IMG/VR virus record: IMGVR_UViG_3300020411_000002
Reading direction: 5' to 3' (one strand)
Origin: a virus
Taxonomy: Duplodnaviria; Caudoviricetes
DNA: 64,000 bases
The notes beneath the pieces were generated by a model that made no database searches, was not told the origin of the DNA, and saw nothing but the letters and a program-made list of their open reading frames with translations. The position numbers and the translations under genes are program-made. Shown in pieces: positions 4,651 to 25,215 of the stretch (within the stretch, counting starts at the first letter, position 1; each line of letters begins with the position of its first letter).

Positions 4651-5703
4651 TTATTCAAACTCAGGTGCGAGTTTATACTTTAAGTCGTATTCAATTATAT
4701 CCATTAGTTCTTCAATTATTTCCTGATCGGCATTGTCGGGGTCTAACTTGATTAGCTTTCCATTCTTATCGAATTCAACTGGAAGTGGAAAGTTACTGAA
4801 CTTTATTTTGATTGGGCTTATTTCATTATGCAGATAAACAACTTCTTTTATTGTTCTTTTCATTGTCTTTCCACCTGTATCATTATCAGGCATTGTTATA
4901 ATATGCTTAACACCCATCTTAATTATAAAGCGTAACTTTTCTTTAGTGAACTGCTTAGCTCCAAGCACTGCTATCGCTGGAATGCCATTCATTAAAAGTC
5001 TTAATGCATCCCTAGCACCTTCAACGATTACAACATACTTTAGTTTGTACTTCTTGATAAGTTCTTTAGTATAGTTGTGAGGAAAGATACCATAGTCTTT
5101 TGCCCAGTCGCCTTCCATACCAAGATAGCTAGGTCTTCCTTTTACTTTGTTTATGTAAGCTTTCTGTCCACCGTAGAAACGCTTATCTATTTTATTAGGA
5201 AAGAAGCAGACTAACTCTTTTTGAGAACGATGCGGTTCAGATAGGTAATAGCCACCAACTTGTTTAATAAGCTTGCCGGGATATCCACGCCAGTCTATAT
5301 CTTCTGACCAAGGGAAGTAAGCAGGGTTCCCAATAGACTTCATTAGTACTTTTATATCGATAGTGCTTTCAACCATACCGAGCTTTCGTTTAAGTCTTTC
5401 AACTTTTTGGTTAGCTTCTTTAGTACTTTTTATTTTTCCATTAAGTGCAGATATCTTTTTAAGATTTAACTTTTCAGCCAGTTCGTTCCAGTGTCCTTTA
5501 GCACCACAACCAAAGCAATGAAAGAATCCTAATGGAATATCTAAACCGATGCCCATAAAGACACCTAAAGATGGATCTGTGTCTGAATGGAAAGGACATA
5601 CTATTTGTATTGCGTCTGCTGTTGCACCGCGAGGTCCCTCTACTTTATCTAGCTCTTCGAATATTATATCGTAGCTACTTCTTAGCTGGTCACTGTTACT
5701 CAT
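4651..5703 (-). CDS. DNA primase-like protein (CHC2 zinc finger + TOPRIM)
   Basis: CPFH...FHCFGCG zinc finger; VIVEGARDA and DND TOPRIM motifs. Confidence 0.8.
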   Translation of the reverse strand: MSNSDQLRSSYDIIFEELDKVEGPRGATADAIQIVCPFHSDTDPSLGVFMGIGLDIPLGFFHCFGCGAKGHWNELAEKLNLKKISALNGKIKSTKEANQKVERLKRKLGMVESTIDIKVLMKSIGNPAYFPWSEDIDWRGYPGKLIKQVGGYYLSEPHRSQKELVCFFPNKIDKRFYGGQKAYINKVKGRPSYLGMEGDWAKDYGIFPHNYTKELIKKYKLKYVVIVEGARDALRLLMNGIPAIAVLGAKQFTKEKLRFIIKMGVKHIITMPDNDTGGKTMKRTIKEVVYLHNEISPIKIKFSNFPLPVEFDKNGKLIKLDPDNADQEIIEELMDIIEYDLKYKLAPEFE

Positions 5704-15704: not shown

Positions 15705-16967
15705 ATGGCTCGTGGATTTGATAATATTAATCCAAACGCAAACAGTAGAGGAGACAAGCTTAAACCTGAAGAAATTTGGGACTTATTTAAGTTTACTGAC
15801 CAAAGTGGTTATGTCTCTGTTCGCTTTTTGCCAACCGATATCTTACCAGTTAAAACACACTGGATTAAAATCTTAGCAGGCAAAGATAAGAAAGAAATCA
15901 AGATTCCAAAAATTTGTATCAGCTTTGATCCAGATAACGAAGCAGTTGCATTAGATGGTACTGACTGTCCTTATTGCAATCTATCACAAGGTCAAGACGG
16001 TGCGTGTCAAACTTCTACTGCTTATTATGCAAACGTTATAGTGCGTGACTTGCAAGAAGATATGCCGCGTAAGCTGCCGCCACACACTAAGAGTGAAAAA
16101 GAAACTGGATACAAAGATATCAAGTCTCGCTCTTGGACTCCTGTTCGAGTTGTACGTTTACCAGCAGGTCTTGCGGGTAAGATTCAAGAAATGCGTGAGC
16201 GTAACAAAGACAAGAAAGGCAACATGTATCCTGTATCTCATGAAGAGTACGGAATTGACATTGCTATCAAGTTTGATGACAGTAAATCAGGTACGGACAA
16301 GTATCAAATCGATAAAGAAGAGCGCTCTCCTTTAGACGACGAAGAGTTAGACTATCTAACTTATGATTTAAGCGTTGAGTGTATTGATATGCTTGGTCGT
16401 GAAAGTCAGGAACAGGCTGACACCGAATTTAAACGTCTTGATATTGTCGGTGAAGATGAAATCGAAGATGATGAAGACGATGAAGAAGATGATTTACCTC
16501 GTCGTAGTAAGAAAGGCAGTAAAGGTCGTCGCCGTGCATCAGTAGATGACGAAGATGAAGAAGATGAAGAAGATGATGAAGAAGATGATCTTCCACGTAG
16601 TCGTAGAGGTAAAAAGTCTTCTAGCCGTCGCTCTCGCCGCAGTTCAATTGATGAAGACGATGACGAAGATGAAGACGAAGACGAAGACGAAGAAGAGTCT
16701 CGTAGCTCTCGCCGTAGTAAACGTTCTTCTTCACGATCTAGCCGTCGCAGCCGTCGCAGTGAGCCAGAAGATGACGAAGATGAAGACGAAGATGATGAAC
16801 CTCGTTCTAGACGTAGTAAACGTTCTTCGACCAAGACTTCTAGCAGTAGAAGACGACGCGCACCTGTAGACGAAGAAGAAGATGAAGATGATGAACCTCG
16901 TTCTCGCCGTTCTCGTACATCTTCTAAGACTCGTTCAAGCTCTCGTTCTCGTTCTCGTAGACGATAA
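15705..16967 (+). CDS. T4 gp32-like single-stranded DNA-binding protein with long D/E and R/S tail
   Basis: VRFLP, HWIK, CPYC, YYANVIVR motifs; directly upstream of RecA. Confidence 0.7.
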   Translation: MARGFDNINPNANSRGDKLKPEEIWDLFKFTDQSGYVSVRFLPTDILPVKTHWIKILAGKDKKEIKIPKICISFDPDNEAVALDGTDCPYCNLSQGQDGACQTSTAYYANVIVRDLQEDMPRKLPPHTKSEKETGYKDIKSRSWTPVRVVRLPAGLAGKIQEMRERNKDKKGNMYPVSHEEYGIDIAIKFDDSKSGTDKYQIDKEERSPLDDEELDYLTYDLSVECIDMLGRESQEQADTEFKRLDIVGEDEIEDDEDDEEDDLPRRSKKGSKGRRRASVDDEDEEDEEDDEEDDLPRSRRGKKSSSRRSRRSSIDEDDDEDEDEDEDEEESRSSRRSKRSSSRSSRRSRRSEPEDDEDEDEDDEPRSRRSKRSSTKTSSSRRRRAPVDEEEDEDDEPRSRRSRTSSKTRSSSRSRSRRR

Positions 16968-19843
16968 TGCCAGCACGAACTACAAAGGCGGCTGAGACTA
17001 CAACTCGCCGTCGCCGTCGTTCTACTAGCGTAGCAGCGACCGAGACAACAGGTGTGAGCAAGCCTAAATCTGCTCGTAGTACCAAGCAGGAAGTAGTAGA
17101 AAACAATAAAGAGTTTTTTGATATCGGTCAAATGCTTGATGAACTTCAAGATGAAACTGATAAGAAATACGGACTTGTAAGCTCAGTACTTGAACGCTCT
17201 AGTGACCGAATGAGTACAGGTATTTTATCTTTGGACTTGTTGCTATATGGTGGTATTCAGCCAGGCGGTTGGTATACTATTTACGGTCCTGAGCAAAGTG
17301 CAAAGTCTACTCTTGCTATGACTATTCTTGCACAAGCGTTACATGCACGAATGACTAAAGGTTCTAAGTTTGCTTGTGGTATCTTTGACTACGAAGGTTC
17401 TGTAGATGAAGAATACACTGGTAACATTATCAAGTCATTGGGCATTAAAGGTAATGCAGCGCAAATCTTTGGTGTACGTGATGATGACGGTGGTTGGGAA
17501 ATTCCTCCTCTTGCTCGTTATTACTCACACGATGTTGGTGATGACTTCTTTAAAGCTCTAGCCAAAATTCGCCGTGGACTTCCAGACAAACAAACGATTA
17601 ACGGCGAGCCGTGTTATCTATTTGAACACACGAAAGCTAACAAGTCTAAGTTTGCTGGAATGTACGATACCAAGTACTTGTCTCGTAACAACAAGATTAA
17701 AGTACCTGCACCAGACGGCTTCATGCAAGGTTTATACTTGTGTGACTCTTATCCAGCTATGTTACCAGATGGTCTTGATGACGATGACCGTAACAGTGGT
17801 ATGGCAGAGCAAGCTCGTATGTTCAGTGAGGGTATCAAAAAAGTTAAAGGCGGTATGCGTAAGAAAGCAATGACTGTAATTGGTATTAACCAGTTGCGTC
17901 TACGTCCAGCGACTATGTTTGGTAATCCTGAATACGAACCGTGTGGTGAAGCGTTGAAGTTTTTCTGCTTCCATCCTACAACAAACCTCTTTACTAAAGA
18001 TGGTCTTGTAACAGGACAGGAGTTTTACGATTCTGGAAGCATGTCTAAGATTCTAGGATCTAAAGGACTTGAGAAACCTACTATCTTTGATAGTACGGGC
18101 TACAGTCAGATTAGTTGTCTAACTACTGAACTTGGTAACTTTATCAAAGCTAAACCTGGACATAGAACACTCTCTATTCAAAATAGAGGCTGTATGCCTG
18201 AATGGACAAAGTTGTCCAGCTTTACAGGCACTGTAGATCGTTATGTTCCTGTTAAAGTAGGTAGTGATATTTGGTCAGATACTGATGCACTATTAGATTT
18301 TGAATCTTTTTCAAAGTATGATAATGATGTTTGTATATCCAGTGTTCCTGAATCAATGTCACCTAAGTTAGCGTATGTTCTAGGCTCTTTATGCGGCGAT
18401 GGTCATGTTCCAGGTACTGGTGTTATTCATTTTGTTACTCAAGACGAAGATACAATGGACTTCTTCTTAGAATGTTTCGAGGAATCGTTTTCATTATCAG
18501 GTCTTGAGTACAGACAGGTAGATAATAAGTTTGAATTCAGCTTATCTAGTCGTAGGATTTCTAACTTCTTAGGTTACTTAGGTTCTACAGGTACTTCCCG
18601 AACTAAGTCTGTTCCTTGGGCAGTCAGAACCTCTACTAAGAAGTCATGTTTGATGTTCTTACGAGGCTTGTTTGACTCAGACGGTAATGTAGGCCCTAAA
18701 GGTATAGGTCTTTCAACAACATCTAAATTGCTTTCCGAGCAAGTACACTTAATGTTGTTGAACTTGGGATGTATTGCTAGACTGAAACGTAAAGACCATG
18801 ATTACCATGAGCATAAAGAACTGAATGCGGTTTATAACATAAGCTGTAGTGGTTCAAATGCTGTACGTTTGTATGAATCCGTAGGTTTAACTTCCGCTCG
18901 AAAAGCAGAAGCCTTTGAATCTAAAAGTACTGGCGATCATACTCATAATGAAATGTATTCTCTTGATCTAATACCTTTTGATGTTTTACCTACTGGTAGA
19001 CAGAAGTTTCAAAAGCTTGAGGGTCTTTTGGCGGAATGCAAAGGAAGAGGAGCTTATTATCGCATTAGCCGCTTTACAGAGGATTGGTTTGATGAAGCAT
19101 TTGGTTTTGTTGAGACTTTACGTACCGAGCATGAACGTGAAAAGTATCAAAACTTTCTTATTACACTAAGTAAGTTTATAGACTACACTAGCGAAAATTC
19201 TTTGTTCTGGACAAAAGTTGTTTCTGTAGACCATAACCTAGAGCGTTCGATGACCTATGATGCTAACATGCCTAAAACACATTCAATTGTGACTAACGGT
19301 ATTGTTTCTCATAACTCCGATGTTCGAATCAAGTCTACTCCACGCAGCACAGGTCCTAGCGGTTTCGTTGTTAATAAAGGAATCGTTGAAGAGCCTAGCG
19401 TTACTGGAAGAGGAAAAGACACTTACCGCTTCTTGCGTTTAAAGACTACTAAGAACAAACTTGGTGGTATGCCACAGCAAGAATGTTGGGCACGTATCTG
19501 GATATCTGATGGTACTGGTACTGCTCGGGGTCTTGACCCAGCGTTTGATACGTTTGAGTATCTTTCACTTCTTGGAATGGTTAGCGGAAACAAAAACAAT
19601 TACAAGTTTAGTGAAGATTGCCCACTTCACGGTGCTAAGAAAATCGATTGGATTACATTTAAGAAACTAGTTCTTTGTTCTCCAAAAGAAGTCAAAGCAA
19701 TTTGTGAAGAGCAAGGTATTAAACCTGTTAAGATTCGCGATTGGTGTCAAAAGCGTTGCGCTAACGGAAGTCATCCTAAGTTGTTCAAAGAAATCTTGGT
19801 GTCTGCTGCTACAGGTGGTAAGAAGTCTGACGATGATGAATAA
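16967..19843 (+). CDS. recA: RecA/UvsX recombinase interrupted by an intein
   Basis: STGILSLDLLLYGG, YGPEQSAKST Walker A, DSYPAM, INQLR, GEALKFF|SDVR, KTTKNK. Confidence 0.9.
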   Translation: MPARTTKAAETTTRRRRRSTSVAATETTGVSKPKSARSTKQEVVENNKEFFDIGQMLDELQDETDKKYGLVSSVLERSSDRMSTGILSLDLLLYGGIQPGGWYTIYGPEQSAKSTLAMTILAQALHARMTKGSKFACGIFDYEGSVDEEYTGNIIKSLGIKGNAAQIFGVRDDDGGWEIPPLARYYSHDVGDDFFKALAKIRRGLPDKQTINGEPCYLFEHTKANKSKFAGMYDTKYLSRNNKIKVPAPDGFMQGLYLCDSYPAMLPDGLDDDDRNSGMAEQARMFSEGIKKVKGGMRKKAMTVIGINQLRLRPATMFGNPEYEPCGEALKFFCFHPTTNLFTKDGLVTGQEFYDSGSMSKILGSKGLEKPTIFDSTGYSQISCLTTELGNFIKAKPGHRTLSIQNRGCMPEWTKLSSFTGTVDRYVPVKVGSDIWSDTDALLDFESFSKYDNDVCISSVPESMSPKLAYVLGSLCGDGHVPGTGVIHFVTQDEDTMDFFLECFEESFSLSGLEYRQVDNKFEFSLSSRRISNFLGYLGSTGTSRTKSVPWAVRTSTKKSCLMFLRGLFDSDGNVGPKGIGLSTTSKLLSEQVHLMLLNLGCIARLKRKDHDYHEHKELNAVYNISCSGSNAVRLYESVGLTSARKAEAFESKSTGDHTHNEMYSLDLIPFDVLPTGRQKFQKLEGLLAECKGRGAYYRISRFTEDWFDEAFGFVETLRTEHEREKYQNFLITLSKFIDYTSENSLFWTKVVSVDHNLERSMTYDANMPKTHSIVTNGIVSHNSDVRIKSTPRSTGPSGFVVNKGIVEEPSVTGRGKDTYRFLRLKTTKNKLGGMPQQECWARIWISDGTGTARGLDPAFDTFEYLSLLGMVSGNKNNYKFSEDCPLHGAKKIDWITFKKLVLCSPKEVKAICEEQGIKPVKIRDWCQKRCANGSHPKLFKEILVSAATGGKKSDDDE
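17966..19315 (+). mobile_element. 450-aa LAGLIDADG homing-endonuclease intein in RecA
   Basis: Starts CFHP after ALKFF; ends NGIVSHN before Ser; LAGLIDADG blocks LGSLCGDG and LRGLFDSDG. Confidence 0.92.
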
Positions 19844-19851
19844 TCAAAAAG

Positions 19852-19859
19852 TGTAAATA
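19852..19859 (+). promoter_or_regulatory. TGTAAATA phage promoter motif ahead of the RNA island
   Basis: AAAAAGTGTAAATAG just after the RecA stop. Confidence 0.55.
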
Positions 19860-19864
19860 GTAAG

Positions 19865-19932
19865 TATGGCAGTAGTTCAGTTTTTATTTGCTCATTGCAG
19901 TTAAAATCTTTTCTACCTGAACTACTGCCGTA
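19865..19932 (+). other. 16-bp hairpin
   Basis: TATGGCAGTAGTTCAG (19865-19880) pairs with CTGAACTACTGCCGTA (19917-19932); one G-U pair on the + strand. Confidence 0.8.
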
Positions 19933-19941
19933 TTCTACAAT

Positions 19942-20169
19942 CAACATAGCGATACTTTCTTGAAAGTCTAAGATAACGACACACGTAACCTCATCTACGT
20001 TGAGTATCAAAGACTAGAAACTAGGAACGTGCTGAGGAGCAAGATAGAGGGGCTTCCAATATGCAGACCGAAAGTGAGCGGGGATTCTCACAATGACTTA
20101 TTGAACGCAAGCGATTTGATCACGTAAGCTATTAGATAGGTTGTTTTGTTAGAAAGTATCGCTATGTTG
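19942..20169 (+). ncRNA. Candidate structured RNA closed by a perfect 19-bp stem
   Basis: CAACATAGCGATACTTTCT (19942-19960) / AGAAAGTATCGCTATGTTG (20151-20169); internal hairpins. Confidence 0.5.
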
Positions 20170-20178
20170 TTTTTCAAT

Positions 20179-20313
20179 GCAGAGAATCACGGTAACAGAT
20201 TGGCTAGTCTAAATCCGTAGGTGTAATAACTAGTGTACATCAGGAATACAGGACATGTGTTGCATGAGCTGGCGCAAAGCCTGTGTTGGTTCGATTCCAA
20301 CTCTCTGCTCCCA
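20179..20313 (+). ncRNA. 135-nt tRNA-like RNA
   Basis: Acceptor GCAGAGA/TCTCTGC, T-arm GTTGG-TTCGATT-CCAAC, 3' CCA; enlarged interior with no clear anticodon arm. Confidence 0.6.
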
Positions 20314-20329
20314 ATTAAACGAGGTATGT

Positions 20330-20866
20330 ATGAACATGAACGTTAAGGATATAATAAATAGATATAAATCCGAAATAGATTCTCTTAATGAGCTTGTTGA
20401 ATCCTTACAATCTCATAATGGTTCACTACAAGAACAGATTCATAATATGGTAACTGAGTACGGCGATGTTTGGTATGACGGTTATTGTGCTGCACAGAAA
20501 AATCAGAAAGAGCTTAATGAAAACTTTGTTTCTGAAAAACGTGAAGCAGGTGAAGACTTCGAACTTCCACCGACAATAGATGAACTTTACTCTGAACAAG
20601 AAGTCAGAGAAATGAGTGAGAACGCCGAGTCTCTTTACGAAGCTAAATCTGTCGGTCGCAAGTTCGTTATGGAATCCAGCGGTTACTACGGTGAAGTTAA
20701 ATTGCCTGCTGCGATATTCAATGAACTTAATCCTGAATTTGTTTTAAGTAGGTCTACTGATACTACCAAGTTCATGTGCGCTAATCCAGAAGAAACAAAA
20801 TACTTGCAGAGCCTGGGTGTTAAAGTAGTTGAAGTTTGTGACTGGTACAAGTTAATAAAAGAATAA
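20330..20866 (+). CDS. Hypothetical protein (start moved from 20255 to ATG after GAGGT)
   Basis: The longer ORF would overlap the tRNA-like RNA; RBS GAGGT lies upstream of 20330. Confidence 0.7.
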   Translation: MNMNVKDIINRYKSEIDSLNELVESLQSHNGSLQEQIHNMVTEYGDVWYDGYCAAQKNQKELNENFVSEKREAGEDFELPPTIDELYSEQEVREMSENAESLYEAKSVGRKFVMESSGYYGEVKLPAAIFNELNPEFVLSRSTDTTKFMCANPEETKYLQSLGVKVVEVCDWYKLIKE

Positions 20867-20870
20867 ATAA

Positions 20871-20941
20871 GGAGACAGACGGTCAGCTAGAGGATTTCAA
20901 CCCTCGATTGCTGGTGGGTTCGAGTCCCCCTGTCTTCACCA
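20871..20941 (+). tRNA. Atypical tRNA, anticodon ambiguous (TTC/TCA), short D-arm
   Basis: Acceptor GGAGACA/TGTCTTC-A-CCA; T-loop TTCGAGT; anticodon stem GAGG/CCTC around ATTTCAAC. Confidence 0.65.
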
Positions 20942-20954
20942 ATTTAAGGAAAAA

Positions 20955-21116
20955 ATGATGCAACTCTTTATTACAATGATTTCTGTTTGTGCTTTTATAG
21001 GTTTATTACTTTTACTGCATATAATCTTTGTAGTACCTGCTATCAACCGCTTCCGTATGTGGAAACACAGTCCATCAAGGAAAAAAGAAAGTCATGCAAG
21101 ACATAACAAACTATAG
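20955..21116 (+). CDS. Small membrane protein (53 aa, not in ORF track)
   Basis: AAGGA RBS; MMQLFITMISVCAFIGLLLLLHIIFVVPA hydrophobic segment, then a basic tail. Confidence 0.55.
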   Translation: MMQLFITMISVCAFIGLLLLLHIIFVVPAINRFRMWKHSPSRKKESHARHNKL

Positions 21117-21444
21117 GCATGAGATTTACATTGCTCTTATCGATTGGGGTTACTCTTTAATTCTATTTAATGAGGATGCACCTAACATAGCTACTTTCTC
21201 TGGTGATACTGTTTCGTTTCCCGATATGGAAACTATATCTTTTGATTCACTTGATACGCTGCATGACCTTGTACGTGCCCGATGTAAAGATTTCCAAAGC
21301 AGATTAAGTACTGACTACTCTGGAACTTTCCATCGTTACTGTATGTTCTCTGAACCTGAATTGGTAGGGGAGCTATGGCAAATGAAGATTGCCTTTACTG
21401 AGATCCGAATTAACAATTTCGTTAATCGCCGTGTCTCTCTATAA
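21094..21444 (+). CDS. Hypothetical protein
   Basis: 116 aa ORF. Confidence 0.6.
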   Translation: MQDITNYRHEIYIALIDWGYSLILFNEDAPNIATFSGDTVSFPDMETISFDSLDTLHDLVRARCKDFQSRLSTDYSGTFHRYCMFSEPELVGELWQMKIAFTEIRINNFVNRRVSL

Positions 21445-21624
21445 AATATAATTTAAGATTATCCGAATTCAGAGTTATGCACACGCTCTGGGTATTGTAA
21501 TAAGTGTGCAACCACAGGAGCAAAGTTATGTTGAATAACTGAATGCGTTAGAGGTCCACCTGAATATCTGTTTATTGTTTTGTTTTATTTTCCGATTTAC
21601 AACTCACTATACAGGTAATCAGTT

Positions 21625-21960
21625 ATGTCTAAATTTCTTAAAGTTAAAATCAAATCACTTGCAGAAGAACAACGAATCATTAAACGTGAAGAGCAGCGTT
21701 ATCGGGGACCCAAATGGGGCGCTAATTGGACGCGTGTTGCCTTAATGATTCATCGCTTACATACCGTACGTCCCGAGATTAGGGCTAGTCACTTGGCATA
21801 CGGTTATCTTCGAGGAAAGCCACTTCACTGTATTGAATCTAGTGCCAGCCGTTCCCAACCCGATTGGCATCGAGTGTTCGCTATGGTAAAGAAGTACGGT
21901 ACTTTCCAGCAAGTTCAAGACTTTGAGCAATGGAAACAACCTCAATCCAAAGCCGCTTAA
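21625..21960 (+). CDS. Hypothetical phage protein
   Basis: 111 aa, RBS AGGT; KIKSLAEE...HLAYGYLRG. Confidence 0.75.
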   Translation: MSKFLKVKIKSLAEEQRIIKREEQRYRGPKWGANWTRVALMIHRLHTVRPEIRASHLAYGYLRGKPLHCIESSASRSQPDWHRVFAMVKKYGTFQQVQDFEQWKQPQSKAA

Positions 21961-21970
21961 CGTGGTAATC

Positions 21971-22700
21971 GTCCCCTAGTCTGACGTAGAGACAGGGGAC
22001 TCCCTTTTCGACAGAGTGATTTCTCCATTGTTAGCAAAGTGACATTGCTGTTCATTCTGTCTTTTCAGTGAGTGTAGTGCAAAGTCACCATGCTGGGTTT
22101 CCATGCCTGTTAGCCTAACATGTTGCACTATACTCCCCTTACACTGCAAGAGCTAACTGACGAAAAAGTCTATTGAGACTGTTCTTTACTAAGAAACTAA
22201 TAAAGTCACTAGCACCCAAGCGTTCTTTAACAATTTGAATCATATTTAGGTAGTCGACCTATGTTTGTATATCGCGACAAATGCTCGGAAGGCAGGTTGC
22301 TTACGTATTGAATTACGACAAACATTCTCGGCTATCTGATAACAACTGCAACATACTCCTCACTTAGCGGCCAAAGCCATTACATCTACTGCTAAGCGTT
22401 ATGCGGTTGTTAATATTCATGTAGATGTTGCGTACTCTTTCTGACATACGAATCGGATAGATACAAAGTAGGTTTAATTCGTATGCTCGGTGGCACTCCC
22501 GTTCTACTTATATTATTTACAAGACGAGTGCTTCTTGTGAAGAACATCTATCTGGAATTTTCAAGCTTTTATACAGATAGTGAATATAGCCGCTGCCGAA
22601 AACAAGGAGCGCCTATCGATGAAAAGCCAGAGTGTGCGGCAATTGGCGGTAAGTACAGAGTATTACTTACTGCTAGCCGCATGTTCGCCAACTAATTATT
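21971..22700 (+). ncRNA. Candidate large ornate ncRNA (~730 nt)
   Basis: More than 10 stems of 6-13 bp, G-U pairs consistently on the + strand, crossing stems; no credible CDS. Confidence 0.6.
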
Positions 22701-22715
22701 TGGAGATTTTCAATT

Positions 22716-22994
22716 ATGGGTCAAGGTTTTCTAGTTCCACAAGGTACTTTTGTAAACCACAAAGCTAACTACAAGAATACTGTTAAGTTTGTGAACGTAC
22801 CAATTAACTTTTCTGCTGTTATTATGACAATGGTTAAGTCAATGAGTAACCCAATGGAGGAACACCCTCACCACAAATACTCTATTGAATTTTACACTTC
22901 ATCAAACGACCACGCGGCTTCTTGGGTTTATGATGACGAAGATGCGCGTGACGCAGATTACGATAGACTTCTATCAACAACCTTCTTTGGTTAA
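22716..22994 (+). CDS. Hypothetical protein
   Basis: 92 aa with RBS GGAG. Confidence 0.7.
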   Translation: MGQGFLVPQGTFVNHKANYKNTVKFVNVPINFSAVIMTMVKSMSNPMEEHPHHKYSIEFYTSSNDHAASWVYDDEDARDADYDRLLSTTFFG

Positions 22995-23012
22995 ACCTTT
23001 GGAGCCTCCACA

Positions 23013-23348
23013 ATGTCTAAAACAGTAACCACGACTTCTAACTTTGTTAAAGCAGAGTTCAATGCCTCTACGTTAAATAAAAGAATCACTGACGTTATCG
23101 AGCAGATAAAAGAACTTGTTGAGCTAGCAAACAAATTCACAACCTATCCAATGCCTAGTCTGAATCACGAAACGCGACCGACTAAGTATATGGAATTAGC
23201 TGAATTGCTAAACTTTGTTTTGGAAGTTCGTCGTCAAGTCCGTTTTGACATTCAAGGCTACATAGAAGAGATTAACAAAATCCAAGAAGAAGCAGACAAG
23301 AAAATTAAAGGCTACGTCAAACCAACCGTAGCTCCTATTAATTCATAA
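23013..23348 (+). CDS. Hypothetical protein
   Basis: 111 aa with RBS GGAG. Confidence 0.7.
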   Translation: MSKTVTTTSNFVKAEFNASTLNKRITDVIEQIKELVELANKFTTYPMPSLNHETRPTKYMELAELLNFVLEVRRQVRFDIQGYIEEINKIQEEADKKIKGYVKPTVAPINS

Positions 23349-23354
23349 GTTTTT

Positions 23355-23745
23355 GGGAGCTGTCAGTCCCCAAGTTCTCTACTAAGCTCTCCATACCTCG
23401 GCGCTTTACGCCAGCGCTTCCCTAGGCTTATAGAGTCTGACAGCTTCCGTTTTATTTGAGTATATCGGAATGCATACCGTATTCCGATGTGCTTACTTGT
23501 ATCCCAAGCGCATTAGTATAATGTCATGCGTTACCCTTTTTTGCGTGATCATTGTATCCTCTGAAGGTTCTGCTTGTTCGTTTCATTCTTGCAGAATCAT
23601 TTTTATGCCCGCTGTTACGGTATGTTTCAGCGGGTTTTTTTCGTTCTGGTTGATAATTTTAGAGTAGAGTCTCCCTTGGACTTTTTGCCTGTGTGAGTAC
23701 ACTCTACTCTTTATCTATCTGGCTTTGGACGCAGGCTTTTTTATT
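23355..23745 (+). ncRNA. Candidate structured RNA / hairpin array
   Basis: Stems 23355-23366/23437-23448, 23462-23471/23481-23490, 23608-23614/23628-23634, 23661-23670/23701-23710. Confidence 0.5.
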
Positions 23746-23757
23746 TAGGAAACATAT

Positions 23758-24306
23758 ATGGAACTAGGACAGAAAATAAAGTCTACTACGCTTACATGGC
23801 CTGTAGTCTATAGAATGTTTTGCTTGCTCTATGCCGAGCGTGAGTACTTTAAGAAAGAAGCATTCAATATTGAAAATAGATACCTATCTATGATGCAGTT
23901 TAAAACTGGAATGCAGTTTGAGGATACTCCTATATTAGATAGAACATGGCTAGTAATGTCTACCCGAACAAAAGATATTCTTGATTTCTTGCGTAGGTTT
24001 AAAGTAGTCAAAGCCTACAAAGTCGTAAACGTTTACGAACAGTCTAAACGAAAAGGAACGCCGCTTGCTGTTAAAGATTTGTTCAACCTACGCATATTTC
24101 CTAGTGCGATACCTGACGTACTGGAAGCCGCTTTGTCTAGACAGTTTCCACAATCTAATTGGGACTTGATGCTAGAAGAGCAGTCACGAAACAACCTAAC
24201 GTTGTCTGTTTATAGAGATAACAACCCCATTCATTTTTTCCATCTAGACCAGAGAAACCGTGCTTGGACTAGATATGCGTATATGTCGAGGACTCTAAAT
24301 GCCTAA
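23758..24306 (+). CDS. Hypothetical protein
   Basis: 182 aa with RBS AGGA. Confidence 0.7.
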   Translation: MELGQKIKSTTLTWPVVYRMFCLLYAEREYFKKEAFNIENRYLSMMQFKTGMQFEDTPILDRTWLVMSTRTKDILDFLRRFKVVKAYKVVNVYEQSKRKGTPLAVKDLFNLRIFPSAIPDVLEAALSRQFPQSNWDLMLEEQSRNNLTLSVYRDNNPIHFFHLDQRNRAWTRYAYMSRTLNA

Positions 24307-24868
24307 GTACTCAGATGTTAAAGACACAAAAATAACCGTACAGTCGATTTATTCAATATTCCTCCGTACGTTAGAAGATGCCGACACGTTCAGAAAAAAT
24401 CCAAGAGTTAGTCAATACGATACCGTAGATGGTAGAGGAAGATCGCTTGATTCTGGGCGAGCTAGATACAGACGAAAGAAAGGGTGGGCATCTGATACCG
24501 TAGAACGCTATATGTCTAAAAACGAAGCGGCGTTTCTTTTGTTGTGTGATCAAGCCGAAGAAATTTCTAAAGTAATGTATAAGTACAAACTAGAATCGGC
24601 GAAAAAAGTTTACGCATTTGCAAAAGGAAAAGCGAAGAATCCAGACCTTGCGAAACGATCTTTTCTCAAAAATAGCTTAGCTCAATGTATCAGTGAATTC
24701 TCGGCGTTTATATTGAAAGCAAAAATAGGTCGATCTTTTACCGTACAATTCCAGAATGGAAGAGCTAACATAAAAGACGATATTTCGGGCGAGTTTAAGA
24801 TATTCGATTACAGTGCAATAGAAGATGCAAAAACACTTGTGGAAGTGGTAAAACAGACCTTTACATAG
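24299..24868 (+). CDS. Hypothetical protein
   Basis: 189 aa, RBS GAGG, terminator follows. Confidence 0.7.
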   Translation: MPKYSDVKDTKITVQSIYSIFLRTLEDADTFRKNPRVSQYDTVDGRGRSLDSGRARYRRKKGWASDTVERYMSKNEAAFLLLCDQAEEISKVMYKYKLESAKKVYAFAKGKAKNPDLAKRSFLKNSLAQCISEFSAFILKAKIGRSFTVQFQNGRANIKDDISGEFKIFDYSAIEDAKTLVEVVKQTFT

Positions 24869-24882
24869 TAGAACAACGCATG

Positions 24883-24905
24883 GGGAGCTAAATAGCTCCC
24901 TTTTT
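24883..24905 (+). terminator. Rho-independent terminator
   Basis: GGGAGCTA-AA-TAGCTCCC-T run. Confidence 0.8.
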
Positions 24906-25060
24906 TGTATCTGTATTATGTGCTTTGTTGAACAAAATAACGCTATACAGAGCGATACAGAGCGCCTTACATTGATAAATACAGCGCATAAATAGCTATA
25001 CTATATATAGGCAGTAAAAATAATTCGAAAATAGCTGGAAGTGAGCCAGGTCAGTGGTTC

Positions 25061-25144
25061 TGTAAGTTACTGATTTATATAGCTTTTTCAAATGGTATCG
25101 TTTTGTCCTAACTTAATAGTGCTGTAAGTGCTTGATTTATATAG
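25061..25144. promoter_or_regulatory. Pair of IHF-like sites in a 22-nt direct repeat
   Basis: TGTAAGTTACTGATTTATATAG (25061-25082) and TGTAAGTGCTTGATTTATATAG (25123-25144). Confidence 0.5.
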
Positions 25145-25173
25145 AAAAAGTGCTGCTAATTATTTTTTATCAC

Positions 25174-25215
25174 GGACAAAATTGTAGTAGAAAACCTCAT
25201 TGGATTTGCTATACT
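25174..25215 (+). promoter_or_regulatory. GGACAAAA-N28-TATACT promoter
   Basis: GGACAAAA 25174-25181; extended -10 TGCTATACT. Confidence 0.65.

Follow-up and report, generated by a model that had tools for sequence, protein, structure and literature searches.

A gene-free gap between two phage genes

What occupies the 755 nt that separate two neighboring genes in a phage genome otherwise densely filled with them? The window analyzed here is the whole stretch of 64,000 nt under study, and all positions refer to it. Its source is a marine jumbo phage of ~243 kb related to phage NCTB, and the 64-kb window is gene-dense and almost wholly encoded on the + strand, as are both genes flanking the gene-free gap at 21961-22715. 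The upstream coding sequence (CDS; 21625-21960, 111 aa) has its stop codon at 21960, and the downstream CDS (92 aa, + strand), preceded by the Shine-Dalgarno sequence UGGAGA at ~22702-22707, starts at 22716. A gene for RecA with a LAGLIDADG intein lies upstream of the gap, and genes for type II topoisomerase subunits and UvdE are found further on.

A preliminary description of this DNA had pointed out about 750 nt without a credible CDS, and this is borne out by the length of the gap and by the stop codons in every frame (11-17 per frame in all six frames). Neither single-stop readthrough nor alternative genetic codes opened any frame of the gap, and no protein remnant was seen in any of its translated frames. 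The same description had allowed that small ORFs could turn out to be the conserved function of the region. The ORF of 70 aa at 22483-22695 (+ strand) was judged not to be a gene: its differences comprise 7 non-synonymous versus 3 synonymous changes, with 7/0/3 variable sites at the three codon positions, no Shine-Dalgarno sequence is present ahead of it, and it has neither a family match nor a counterpart in the more distant relatives described below as clade B. This candidate was rejected, as codon selection, ribosome-binding site and relatives all fail.

Other signals were also sought in the gap. A repeat search showed that the arms of its hairpins are not copies of a dispersed repeat, and a scan of its + strand for sigma-70 promoters and terminators found nothing inside; the same promoter scan gave two promoter-like sites on the - strand, the total number of sites being below the chance expectation. 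Searching the rest of the 64-kb window for sites of CATGCCTGTT and of the TTCTCC loop, described below, gave no meaningful extras.

Distribution of the gap among related phages

The closest deposited phage is NCTB (LT598654, 258 kb), with 64% identity in the 111-aa protein and 60% in the topoisomerase, followed by Erwinia jumbo phages. NCTB has been grouped with PaBG, Lu11, and the Dickeya and Erwinia jumbo phages, and Tara Oceans contigs >200 kb are close to it (PMC7412058). Variants resembling the window were found in marine assemblies, many of them from Tara, on contigs of ~240 kb. The same two flanking genes enclose a gap in three lineages, namely clade A (the window, L003, and L013-L022; 752-755 nt), clade B (L001, identical to L004 and L006, together with L023, L024, and L027; 805-811 nt), and NCTB itself (1028 nt). 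Against 50,697 phage records, megablast and blastn retrieved no match to the window gap, and the NCTB gap had NCTB itself as its sole match.

Purifying selection and strand-specific base pairing

Between the window and L003, the gap diverges by 4.7%, versus 12.5-26% at the codon third positions of the four nearest genes; therefore, the gap is under purifying selection. Within clades, it diverges 3-5 times more slowly than nearby codon third positions. Folding of the + strand gives a minimum free energy (MFE) of -228.9 kcal/mol with a z-score of -6.1, versus -1.4 for the - strand (20 dinucleotide shuffles per strand, as for all fold z-scores given here), so the packing of stems noticed in the preliminary description goes beyond chance. 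The clade-B gap has z-scores of -10.9 (+) versus -4.0 (-). In a sliding fold scan of the 12-30 kb region with segments of 150 nt, the signal lies mainly at 21901-22200 and 22576-22725, the middle of the gap being unremarkable at that segment size. All seven stems listed earlier are present at the positions given for them; their lengths range from 6 to 13 pairs, and none has more than one G-U. The polarity of the G-U pairs, which had been placed on the + strand, agrees with the clade-A consensus obtained by RNAalifold from eight sequences, in which a G-U is found in 32 of the 226 pairs (32-33 such pairs per clade in A and B).

Only 15 pairs of the clade-A consensus vary, and 14 of these stay canonical whereas 1 breaks. 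Three variable pairs have changed on both sides and yet remain paired (A-U/G-C and A-U/U-A in the + strand helix 22070-82/22123-35, and C-G/U-A in 22341-50/22402-11), and 11 have changed on one side through G-U. In this alignment, 99.9% of the cells are paired, a figure that drops to 36-44% once partners are shifted by 1-3 columns. The clade-B consensus (four sequences, 234 pairs) has 23 variable pairs, among which 17 are canonical in every sequence and 4 have changed on both sides. Variation is ~2.4-2.5 times lower in paired than in unpaired columns (4.0% vs 9.5% in clade A, 5.8% vs 14.7% in clade B). If read on the - strand, 3 of the 15 variable pairs of clade A and 6 of the 23 of clade B would survive; this pattern excludes both DNA hairpins and an antisense RNA. 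The region thus displays the one-strand-specific compensatory evolution, above controls, that is taken here as the mark of a structured RNA. Covariation, whose absence had been named as evidence against such an RNA, is indeed found within both clades and between them. The diversity behind these counts is thin, with two alignable clades, a doubtful third and within-clade identities of 93-100%, and the independent substitution events are therefore few.

Comparison between clades

Across clade A, clade B and NCTB, MAFFT, blastn and nhmmer gave no alignment beyond short blocks (13-22 nt between A and B). A covariance model built from clade A alone (R1; 21961-22140, comprising the hairpins H1-H3, with 180 positions and 50 pairs) matched all four clade-B loci over its full length and at the syntenic site (E 9e-8 to 7e-6), and these matches begin where the upstream gene ends or slightly ahead of that point. 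In the resulting alignment, which was fitted by the covariance model and so leans towards its structure, 21 of the 50 pairs are compensated between the two clade consensuses, 17 are unchanged, 3 have changed on one side and 9 are lost. The lost pairs belong mostly to the apical helix of H2, where clade B has another helix instead. Clade B folded alone predicts the same three hairpins. Between the two clades, the loops are identical in sequence at CCCUUUYC after H1, at UUCUCC..UUG in H2 and at CAUGCCUGUU at the tip of H3.

Two further models cover more of the gap. The matches of R2 (22215-22415) to clade B are collinear and marginal (E 0.013-0.037), and they align the block UCUUUAACAAUUU together with the hairpin Hb, in which 9 pairs are compensated. 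R3 (22545-22695) gave a marginal match (E 0.021) in L001 only, aligning the conserved hairpin AGCCG..AAAACA..GGA..CGCC. A scan of IMG/VR for the block TCTTTAACAATTT(N)GAATC returned 15 loci, of which R1 matched just the known clade-B contig, the rest being attributable to chance. At the loci of distant homologues of the 111-aa gene (L005, L007-L012, L029), the three models R1-R3 found no significant match; in most of them the next gene follows directly, with no such RNA tail.

The models R1-R3 also gave no significant match on NCTB. The NCTB gap has in common with the window gap a collinear chain of short exact blocks, and both gaps open with a terminator-like H1 and CCCUUUUC and close with AUGAAAAG and a long terminal hairpin. 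From these sequence likenesses, the NCTB gap is a probable expanded homologue of the RNA in the window.

Anatomy of the RNA

All the elements described here lie on the + strand. Upstream of the 111-aa CDS, a conserved leader (21445-21624) diverges by 2.8% between sub-clades, versus 12-26% at third positions, and is the probable promoter region; judging by its sequence, a TATAAT-like hexamer at ~21447-21452 could serve as part of the promoter. Directly after the stop codon of the CDS, H1 (21971-22000) is an 11-bp G+C-rich terminator-like hairpin (z -3.7), 4 pairs of which are compensated between clades A and B. Its equivalent in NCTB is a canonical terminator with a U-run, and the contig of metatranscriptome run X1, presented below, reads through H1. 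Directly after H1 comes the conserved CCCUUUUC (22001-22009), from which CUUUUC (22004-22009) could pair with GAAAAG (22621-22626) in a candidate long-range helix predicted in clade A. The equivalent helix CCUUU/AAAGG is predicted independently in clade B, and both motifs are present in NCTB. No true covariation was found in this helix; clade B shortens its U-run and its A-run by one matching base.

In H2 (22010-22061), a conserved internal loop separates a basal stem of 10 bp from an apical stem of 6 bp. Comparison of clade A with clade B shows compensation at 7 of the 10 basal pairs, and clades A and B and NCTB all retain the loop motif TTCTCC..TTG/ATTGT. This internal loop, UUUCUCCAUUG (~22020-22031), resembles an anti-Shine-Dalgarno sequence. 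H3 (22070-22135), with stems of 13, 4 and 6 bp and a conserved apical UUUCCAUGCCUGUUAGCC, has double changes within clade A (G-C/A-U and U-A/A-U) plus one wobble change, and between the clades ~10 of its pairs are compensated while CAUGCCUGUU remains identical. A small hairpin (22167-22180) and then a conserved, mostly unpaired block, CGUUCUUUAACAAUUUGAAUC (22221-22241), follow. This block is the sole BLAST match between clades A and B, with the exact 13-mer TCTTTAACAATTT, and it anchors the collinear matches of R2.

The hairpin Ha (22246-22339; 12 + 8 bp) contains a three-way junction (22274-22300, 22304-22317) and has two wobble-preserving changes in clade A, its alignment to clade B being inconsistent among sequences. 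Hb (22341-22411; 10 + 9 bp) carries, in addition to the pairs compensated in clade B, one C-G to U-A compensation in L003. The apical loop of Hb, ACAUCUAC (22382-22389), is complementary to GUAGAUGU (22421-22428), and the arms of the pseudoknot proposed here in the preliminary description (6 and 8 bp) are perfectly complementary and invariant in every sequence found. A small hairpin competing with this pseudoknot (22412-22429) carries the sole broken pair of the clade-A structure. Further on, two mutually exclusive hairpins are predicted, one by the alignment consensus (22432-22444/22453-22464) and the other, already listed in the preliminary description, by the single-sequence MFE (22445-22453/22477-22485), and they are followed by two more (22493-22503/22523-22531 and 22548-22554/22574-22580), with a U-G/U-A change in the second.

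Near the 3' end, the conserved hairpin AUAGCCGCUGCC-GAAAACAA-GGAGCGCCUAU (22586-22616) is the one that R3 aligns to clade B in L001; its sequence similarity to clade B is evident, with one U-A to C-G compensation seen by eye. The terminal hairpin of 23 bp (22630-22686; z -4.6) is the probable 3' end of the abundant RNA. Two wobble changes keep its pairing, and an equivalent long hairpin stands after AAAGG/GAAAAG in clade B and in NCTB.

The order of H1, H2, H3, the conserved block and Hb is kept in clade B despite the unalignable sequence, and the position of Ha, the conserved 3' hairpin and the terminal hairpin also appear to be kept there, on weaker or by-eye support. The 14-bp long-range helix 22181-95/22532-45 is, like the pseudoknot, plausible but invariant, and the long-range helices predicted in clade B are not equivalent to those of clade A; it is the hairpins that covariation supports. 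Since no covariation was seen in the long-range helices, and the predictions for the two clades disagree on them, the region could be a string of hairpins. As for the "ornate" RNA of the preliminary description, its local helices covary, and a complex tertiary fold may accompany them, the long-range helices and the pseudoknot being invariant or inconsistent between the clades.

Abundance in metatranscriptomes

Fifteen runs recorded as RNA contain the region (20 runs listed, belonging to 11 studies), and contigs from four runs of four studies were placed on 19500-25200 (5.7 kb). The assembled contigs give mean depth rather than strand or true ends, and the + strand of the RNA is deduced from the evolution of its pairs. 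In run X1, a single contig of 1208 nt (21482-22689) has a depth of 53, ~10 times that of the pieces from neighboring genes (4.6-8.8), and it ends 3 nt past the base of the terminal hairpin, the depth then falling from 53 to 4.6. Because this one contig spans both, the gap RNA and the 111-aa gene upstream share a transcript. Assembly in X7 yielded nothing of the 5.7 kb except 21547-21975 (depth 36) and 22243-22648 (depth 56), and in X14 nothing except 22151-22613. X2 has a flat depth of 3.5-7, compatible with DNA carry-over or uniform expression.

Fewer RNA runs contain a 10-kb control stretch of this phage (30000-39999). The fraction present was 0.70 for the RNA region versus 0.09 for the control in X5, and 0.40 versus 0.11 in X12, while X7-X10 and X14-X16 fell below the listing threshold for the control stretch. 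The RNA region and its upstream gene thus rank with the most abundant transcripts that this phage makes in nature. The lack of a discrete transcript had also been put forward as a reason to doubt the RNA; a transcript is present in the contigs at ~10 times the flank depth, and it may be a discrete one. Short abundant RNAs are present in neighboring gaps as well, for example at 19951-20112 with a depth of 58.

The upstream protein and the RNA neighborhood

The 111-aa protein encoded by the co-transcribed + strand gene is basic and all-helical. Compared with L017, its CDS has 1/0/8 substitutions at the three codon positions, mainly at position 3. Homologues are widespread in phages. Searches of the protein against Pfam, PHROGs and PDB sequences gave no match, and its AF2 model (pLDDT 89) retrieved only its own uncharacterised family with Foldseek in PDB and the AFDB clusters. 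The fold is uninformative, and no evidence emerged for binding of the gap RNA by the protein. Because the wider family of this protein occurs without the RNA, an obligate protein-RNA pair is not indicated.

The gap had been described as part of a tRNA island, which does not hold for the window, since ARAGORN and Rfam find no tRNA gene in the whole 64 kb. A tRNA-like element with T-arm, acceptor and CCA lies at ~20870-20941 and is common to clades A and B; in clade B, a true tRNA-Met stands beside it, ~900 nt upstream of the clade-B copy of the RNA. The nearness of the RNA to tRNAs therefore holds only loosely. The surrounding 6 kb form what could be called an RNA island, in which at least two more conserved gaps with structure occur besides tRNA-like elements, annotated so far as hypothetical proteins or left blank.

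Nature and possible role of the gap RNA

A large structured non-coding RNA on the + strand, possibly of a new class, had been proposed for this locus, and this proposal is supported by the transcript, by the covariation and by the lack of an Rfam match. The data establish that 21961 to ~22686 (+) is a selected, abundant and highly base-paired non-coding RNA domain of ~720 nt, without counterpart among the families described so far. The reading that we favor, and consider reasonably likely, is that this domain acts in trans. It may not be a gene in its own right but a 3' UTR, or an RNA derived from one. In such a scheme, transcription would start from the promoter of the 111-aa gene at ~21460-21480 and read through H1 as a weak terminator-like hairpin, and the transcript would end at the terminal hairpin (22630-22686) or be trimmed back to it, so that little transcription would pass beyond this hairpin into the next gene. 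What persists would be a stable RNA, in the form of a long 3' UTR or of a processed product, and its folded domain could act in trans as a scaffold or decoy, although a cis-acting 3' UTR would fit the co-transcription equally well. Putative contact sites are the UUCUCC..UUG of H2, CAUGCCUGUU at the tip of H3, UCUUUAACAAUUU, and the hairpin AGCCG..AAAACA..GGA, and the partner could be a protein, the ribosome or the Shine-Dalgarno sequence of an mRNA.

The cis-acting alternative, in which a structured 3' UTR would do no more than shield the strongly expressed 111-aa mRNA from 3'-to-5' exonucleases and RNase E and insulate the downstream gene, deserves attention, even if we find it unlikely. It agrees with the X1 contig, which joins CDS and gap at equal depth, with the tenfold drop in depth after the terminal hairpin, and with the resemblance of H1 and the terminal hairpin to terminators or protective stem-loops. 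However, ~720 nt and at least 20 helices far exceed what the protection of an mRNA needs, and the conservation of loops across clades while stems drift points to specific contacts; distant homologues of the 111-aa gene do without such a tail, and the gap is deeper than the CDS in X7 or assembled without it in X14. Were the RNA instead a long 5' leader controlling the 92-aa gene together with the operon that follows, whether through attenuation or because the UCUCC loop of H2 covers the Shine-Dalgarno sequence, the exact complementarity between the UCUCCA of H2 and UGGAGA at 22702-22707, which has equivalents in clade B and NCTB, and the 10 times lower downstream depth would find an explanation. 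This is improbable, as CUCC motifs pair with Shine-Dalgarno sequences in general, which makes the complementarity weak evidence, and the pairing of H2 with UGGAGA is part of no predicted fold. Moreover, leaders of 700 nt are unusual in phages, and the RNA accumulates far above the gene that it supposedly controls.

The unity of the RNA can also be questioned, since the supported helices are all local hairpins, X2, X7 and X14 yielded separate contigs, and short abundant RNAs occupy neighboring gaps. An array of independent small RNAs or processing products would account for these observations, but we hold this to be quite improbable in view of the single 1208-nt contig of X1, the lack of any promoter or terminator consensus found inside the gap, and the collinearity of all elements in two clades. 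The richness of the gap in inverted repeats and the nearby RecA intein, which bears a homing endonuclease, could suggest an element acting at the DNA level (an origin, a packaging or a recombination site) or mere junk in decay, left by a dead gene or a mobile element. A hairpin in DNA would require Watson-Crick pairing on either strand, whereas the G-U pairs (32 of 226) and the wobble-preserving changes work on one strand only, and the gap is more conserved than synonymous sites, transcribed, and devoid of protein remnants, which makes this explanation hardly credible.

Returning to the trans-acting structured RNA, a more speculative and rather doubtful extension would make it the first known representative of a new class of giant structured RNAs (700-1000 nt) in marine jumbo phages. 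It would adopt one defined fold closed by CUUUUC/GAAAAG, and its conserved loops, including an anti-Shine-Dalgarno mimic, would serve during infection to sequester something of the host, for instance ribosomes, mRNA leaders, or a defence or regulatory protein that binds RNA.

Comparison with known RNA families

At gathering thresholds, Rfam cmscan gave no match in the whole 64-kb window, and in the 1.7-kb region at E up to 10 it gave four matches at noise level, none to GOLLD or ROOL. The preliminary description had been unable to assign the RNA to either of these families, and cmscan agrees: neither covariance model matched, even at E up to 10, and membership in GOLLD or ROOL was rejected. 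A literature search found no description of this RNA. Bacterial and phage RNAs of more than 500 nt with conserved structure are rare. The gap RNA is best filed as a new family among the large structured RNAs of phages and bacteria, and it probably represents a new class of large phage RNA. If so, it would add a further large structured RNA unrelated to GOLLD, ROOL and OLE, carried by an abundant and globally distributed lineage of marine jumbo phages and visible in existing metatranscriptomes. The hundreds of natural variants in public assemblies make deep covariation analysis and structure determination feasible; two variants of the flanking proteins (P0050 and P0051) already account for more than 250 indexed blocks of the assembly collection.

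A lone intrinsic terminator was considered and rejected, as H1 fits this loosely but is read through and is accompanied by at least 20 further conserved helices. Several known systems have features in common with the gap RNA. The species 1 and 2 ("band C/D") RNAs in the tRNA region of T4 and the non-coding RNAs of phiKZ are stable, abundant and ~100-150 nt long. Like them, the gap RNA is an abundant non-coding RNA found among small early or middle genes and tRNA-like elements in a large lytic phage, but it is much longer (~720 nt), and homology is not expected. Small RNAs derived from 3' UTRs, such as CpxQ and SroC, and structured 3' UTRs resemble it in lying directly after a stop codon, in using the promoter of the mRNA and in having a stable end hairpin; in contrast to the CpxQ/SroC type, the gap RNA is 5-10 times longer, has at least 20 helices and has no defined seed-like single-stranded region.

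OLE RNA (~600 nt, Firmicutes) is likewise a large structured RNA within an operon, transcribed with the flanking protein genes. However, OLE is bacterial and the gap RNA belongs to a phage, where it has no Rfam match and no evidence for a partner protein. GOLLD and ROOL are large ornate RNAs often found in phages and prophages, and in phage genomes they are frequently adjacent to tRNA genes. To our knowledge, the functions of GOLLD, ROOL and OLE have remained unexplained for 15 years, and these RNAs have recently been seen to form RNA-only assemblies. The gap RNA differs from GOLLD and ROOL in that no common motifs were seen, no tRNA gene is adjacent in the window, and it is co-transcribed behind a protein gene; a complex multi-junction or oligomeric architecture would be conjecture in its case. 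GOLLD/ROOL-like ornate RNAs assemble into homo-oligomers made of RNA only (PMC12286853). Nevertheless, the gap RNA resembles GOLLD and ROOL in its size class (500-800+ nt), in being phage-borne and abundant, in combining many helices with few conserved loops, and in having tRNA-like elements nearby.

Elements neighbouring the structured RNA

Other elements lie around the main structured RNA, among them one at 20870-20941 that spans about 72 nt and resembles a tRNA: its acceptor-like stem has 7 bp (GGAGACA/UGUCUUC), its T-arm reads GGGUUCGAGUCCCC, and it terminates in ACCA. This element is approximately 95% identical between clade A (the window and its close relatives) and clade B, and the remainder of the same gap is unalignable. 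Neither ARAGORN nor the Rfam tRNA model called it, and its sole match was a weak resemblance to a tmRNA end (8.9 bits). A genuine tRNA-Met(CAT) lies directly 3' of the tRNA-like element in clade B and has been lost from clade A. The preliminary description had also proposed a second tRNA mimic at 20179-20313. This stretch folds into a closing stem of 7 bp and a hairpin resembling a T-arm (GGUUCGAUUCC), and its 3' end is UCCCA. Its folding z (folding energy relative to shuffled sequences) is only -1.9, it is without a match in ARAGORN or Rfam, and the beginning of an ORF (20255-20866) lies within its 3' part.

An element at 19939-20172 is flanked by the arms of an inverted repeat of 22 nt, which are 95% complementary. 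In the marine metatranscriptome X1, the stretch 19951-20112 is covered by a contig of 162 nt at a depth of 58, an abundance equal to that of the main RNA. Segment 20001-20068 bears a weak, sub-threshold likeness to the Ocean-VII motif (14.1 bits against a gathering score of 53.5), and the gap holding the element diverges by just 1.2-4.4% among sub-clades. The most conserved gap of the neighbourhood is the 180-nt leader (21445-21624) located 5' of the 111-aa gene, which shows 2.8-3.3% divergence, is included in the abundant contig, and may contain a promoter and a regulatory 5' UTR. Downstream, the top local folding signal in the scan of 12-30 kb was found at 23326-23625 (gap 23349-23757), with a z of -7.0 on the + strand versus -0.4 on the - strand. 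This region is T-rich and diverges by 0.7-4.7% among sub-clades; none of the four RNA runs whose contigs were examined assembled it at notable depth.

Neighbouring genes

The window encodes a RecA with a LAGLIDADG intein (16967-19843, 958 aa). Among otherwise near-identical natural variants, L014 and L017-L019 carry an intein-less RecA of 509 aa and L015 a form of 647 aa; therefore, the intein is polymorphic in wild populations. In phage NCTB, the annotated 62-aa CDS BN7874_028 (minus strand; 5215-5403 of locus L002, 22356-22544 of the NCTB record) lies within the 3' part of this phage's version of the structured gap, overlaps the next gene, and is probably a spurious call.

A promoter-like motif

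The motif TGTAAATA occurs 14 times in the whole window versus 4.8 expected, with 11 of the 14 copies on the + strand. No + strand copy lies upstream of the main RNA; one copy lies inside the main RNA region on the - strand (22514-22521). Several others are located immediately 5' of genes or gaps (8549, 12199, 12214, 19852, 47876, 54489, and 60199). The motif is consistent with a phage promoter akin to the T4 late TATAAATA.
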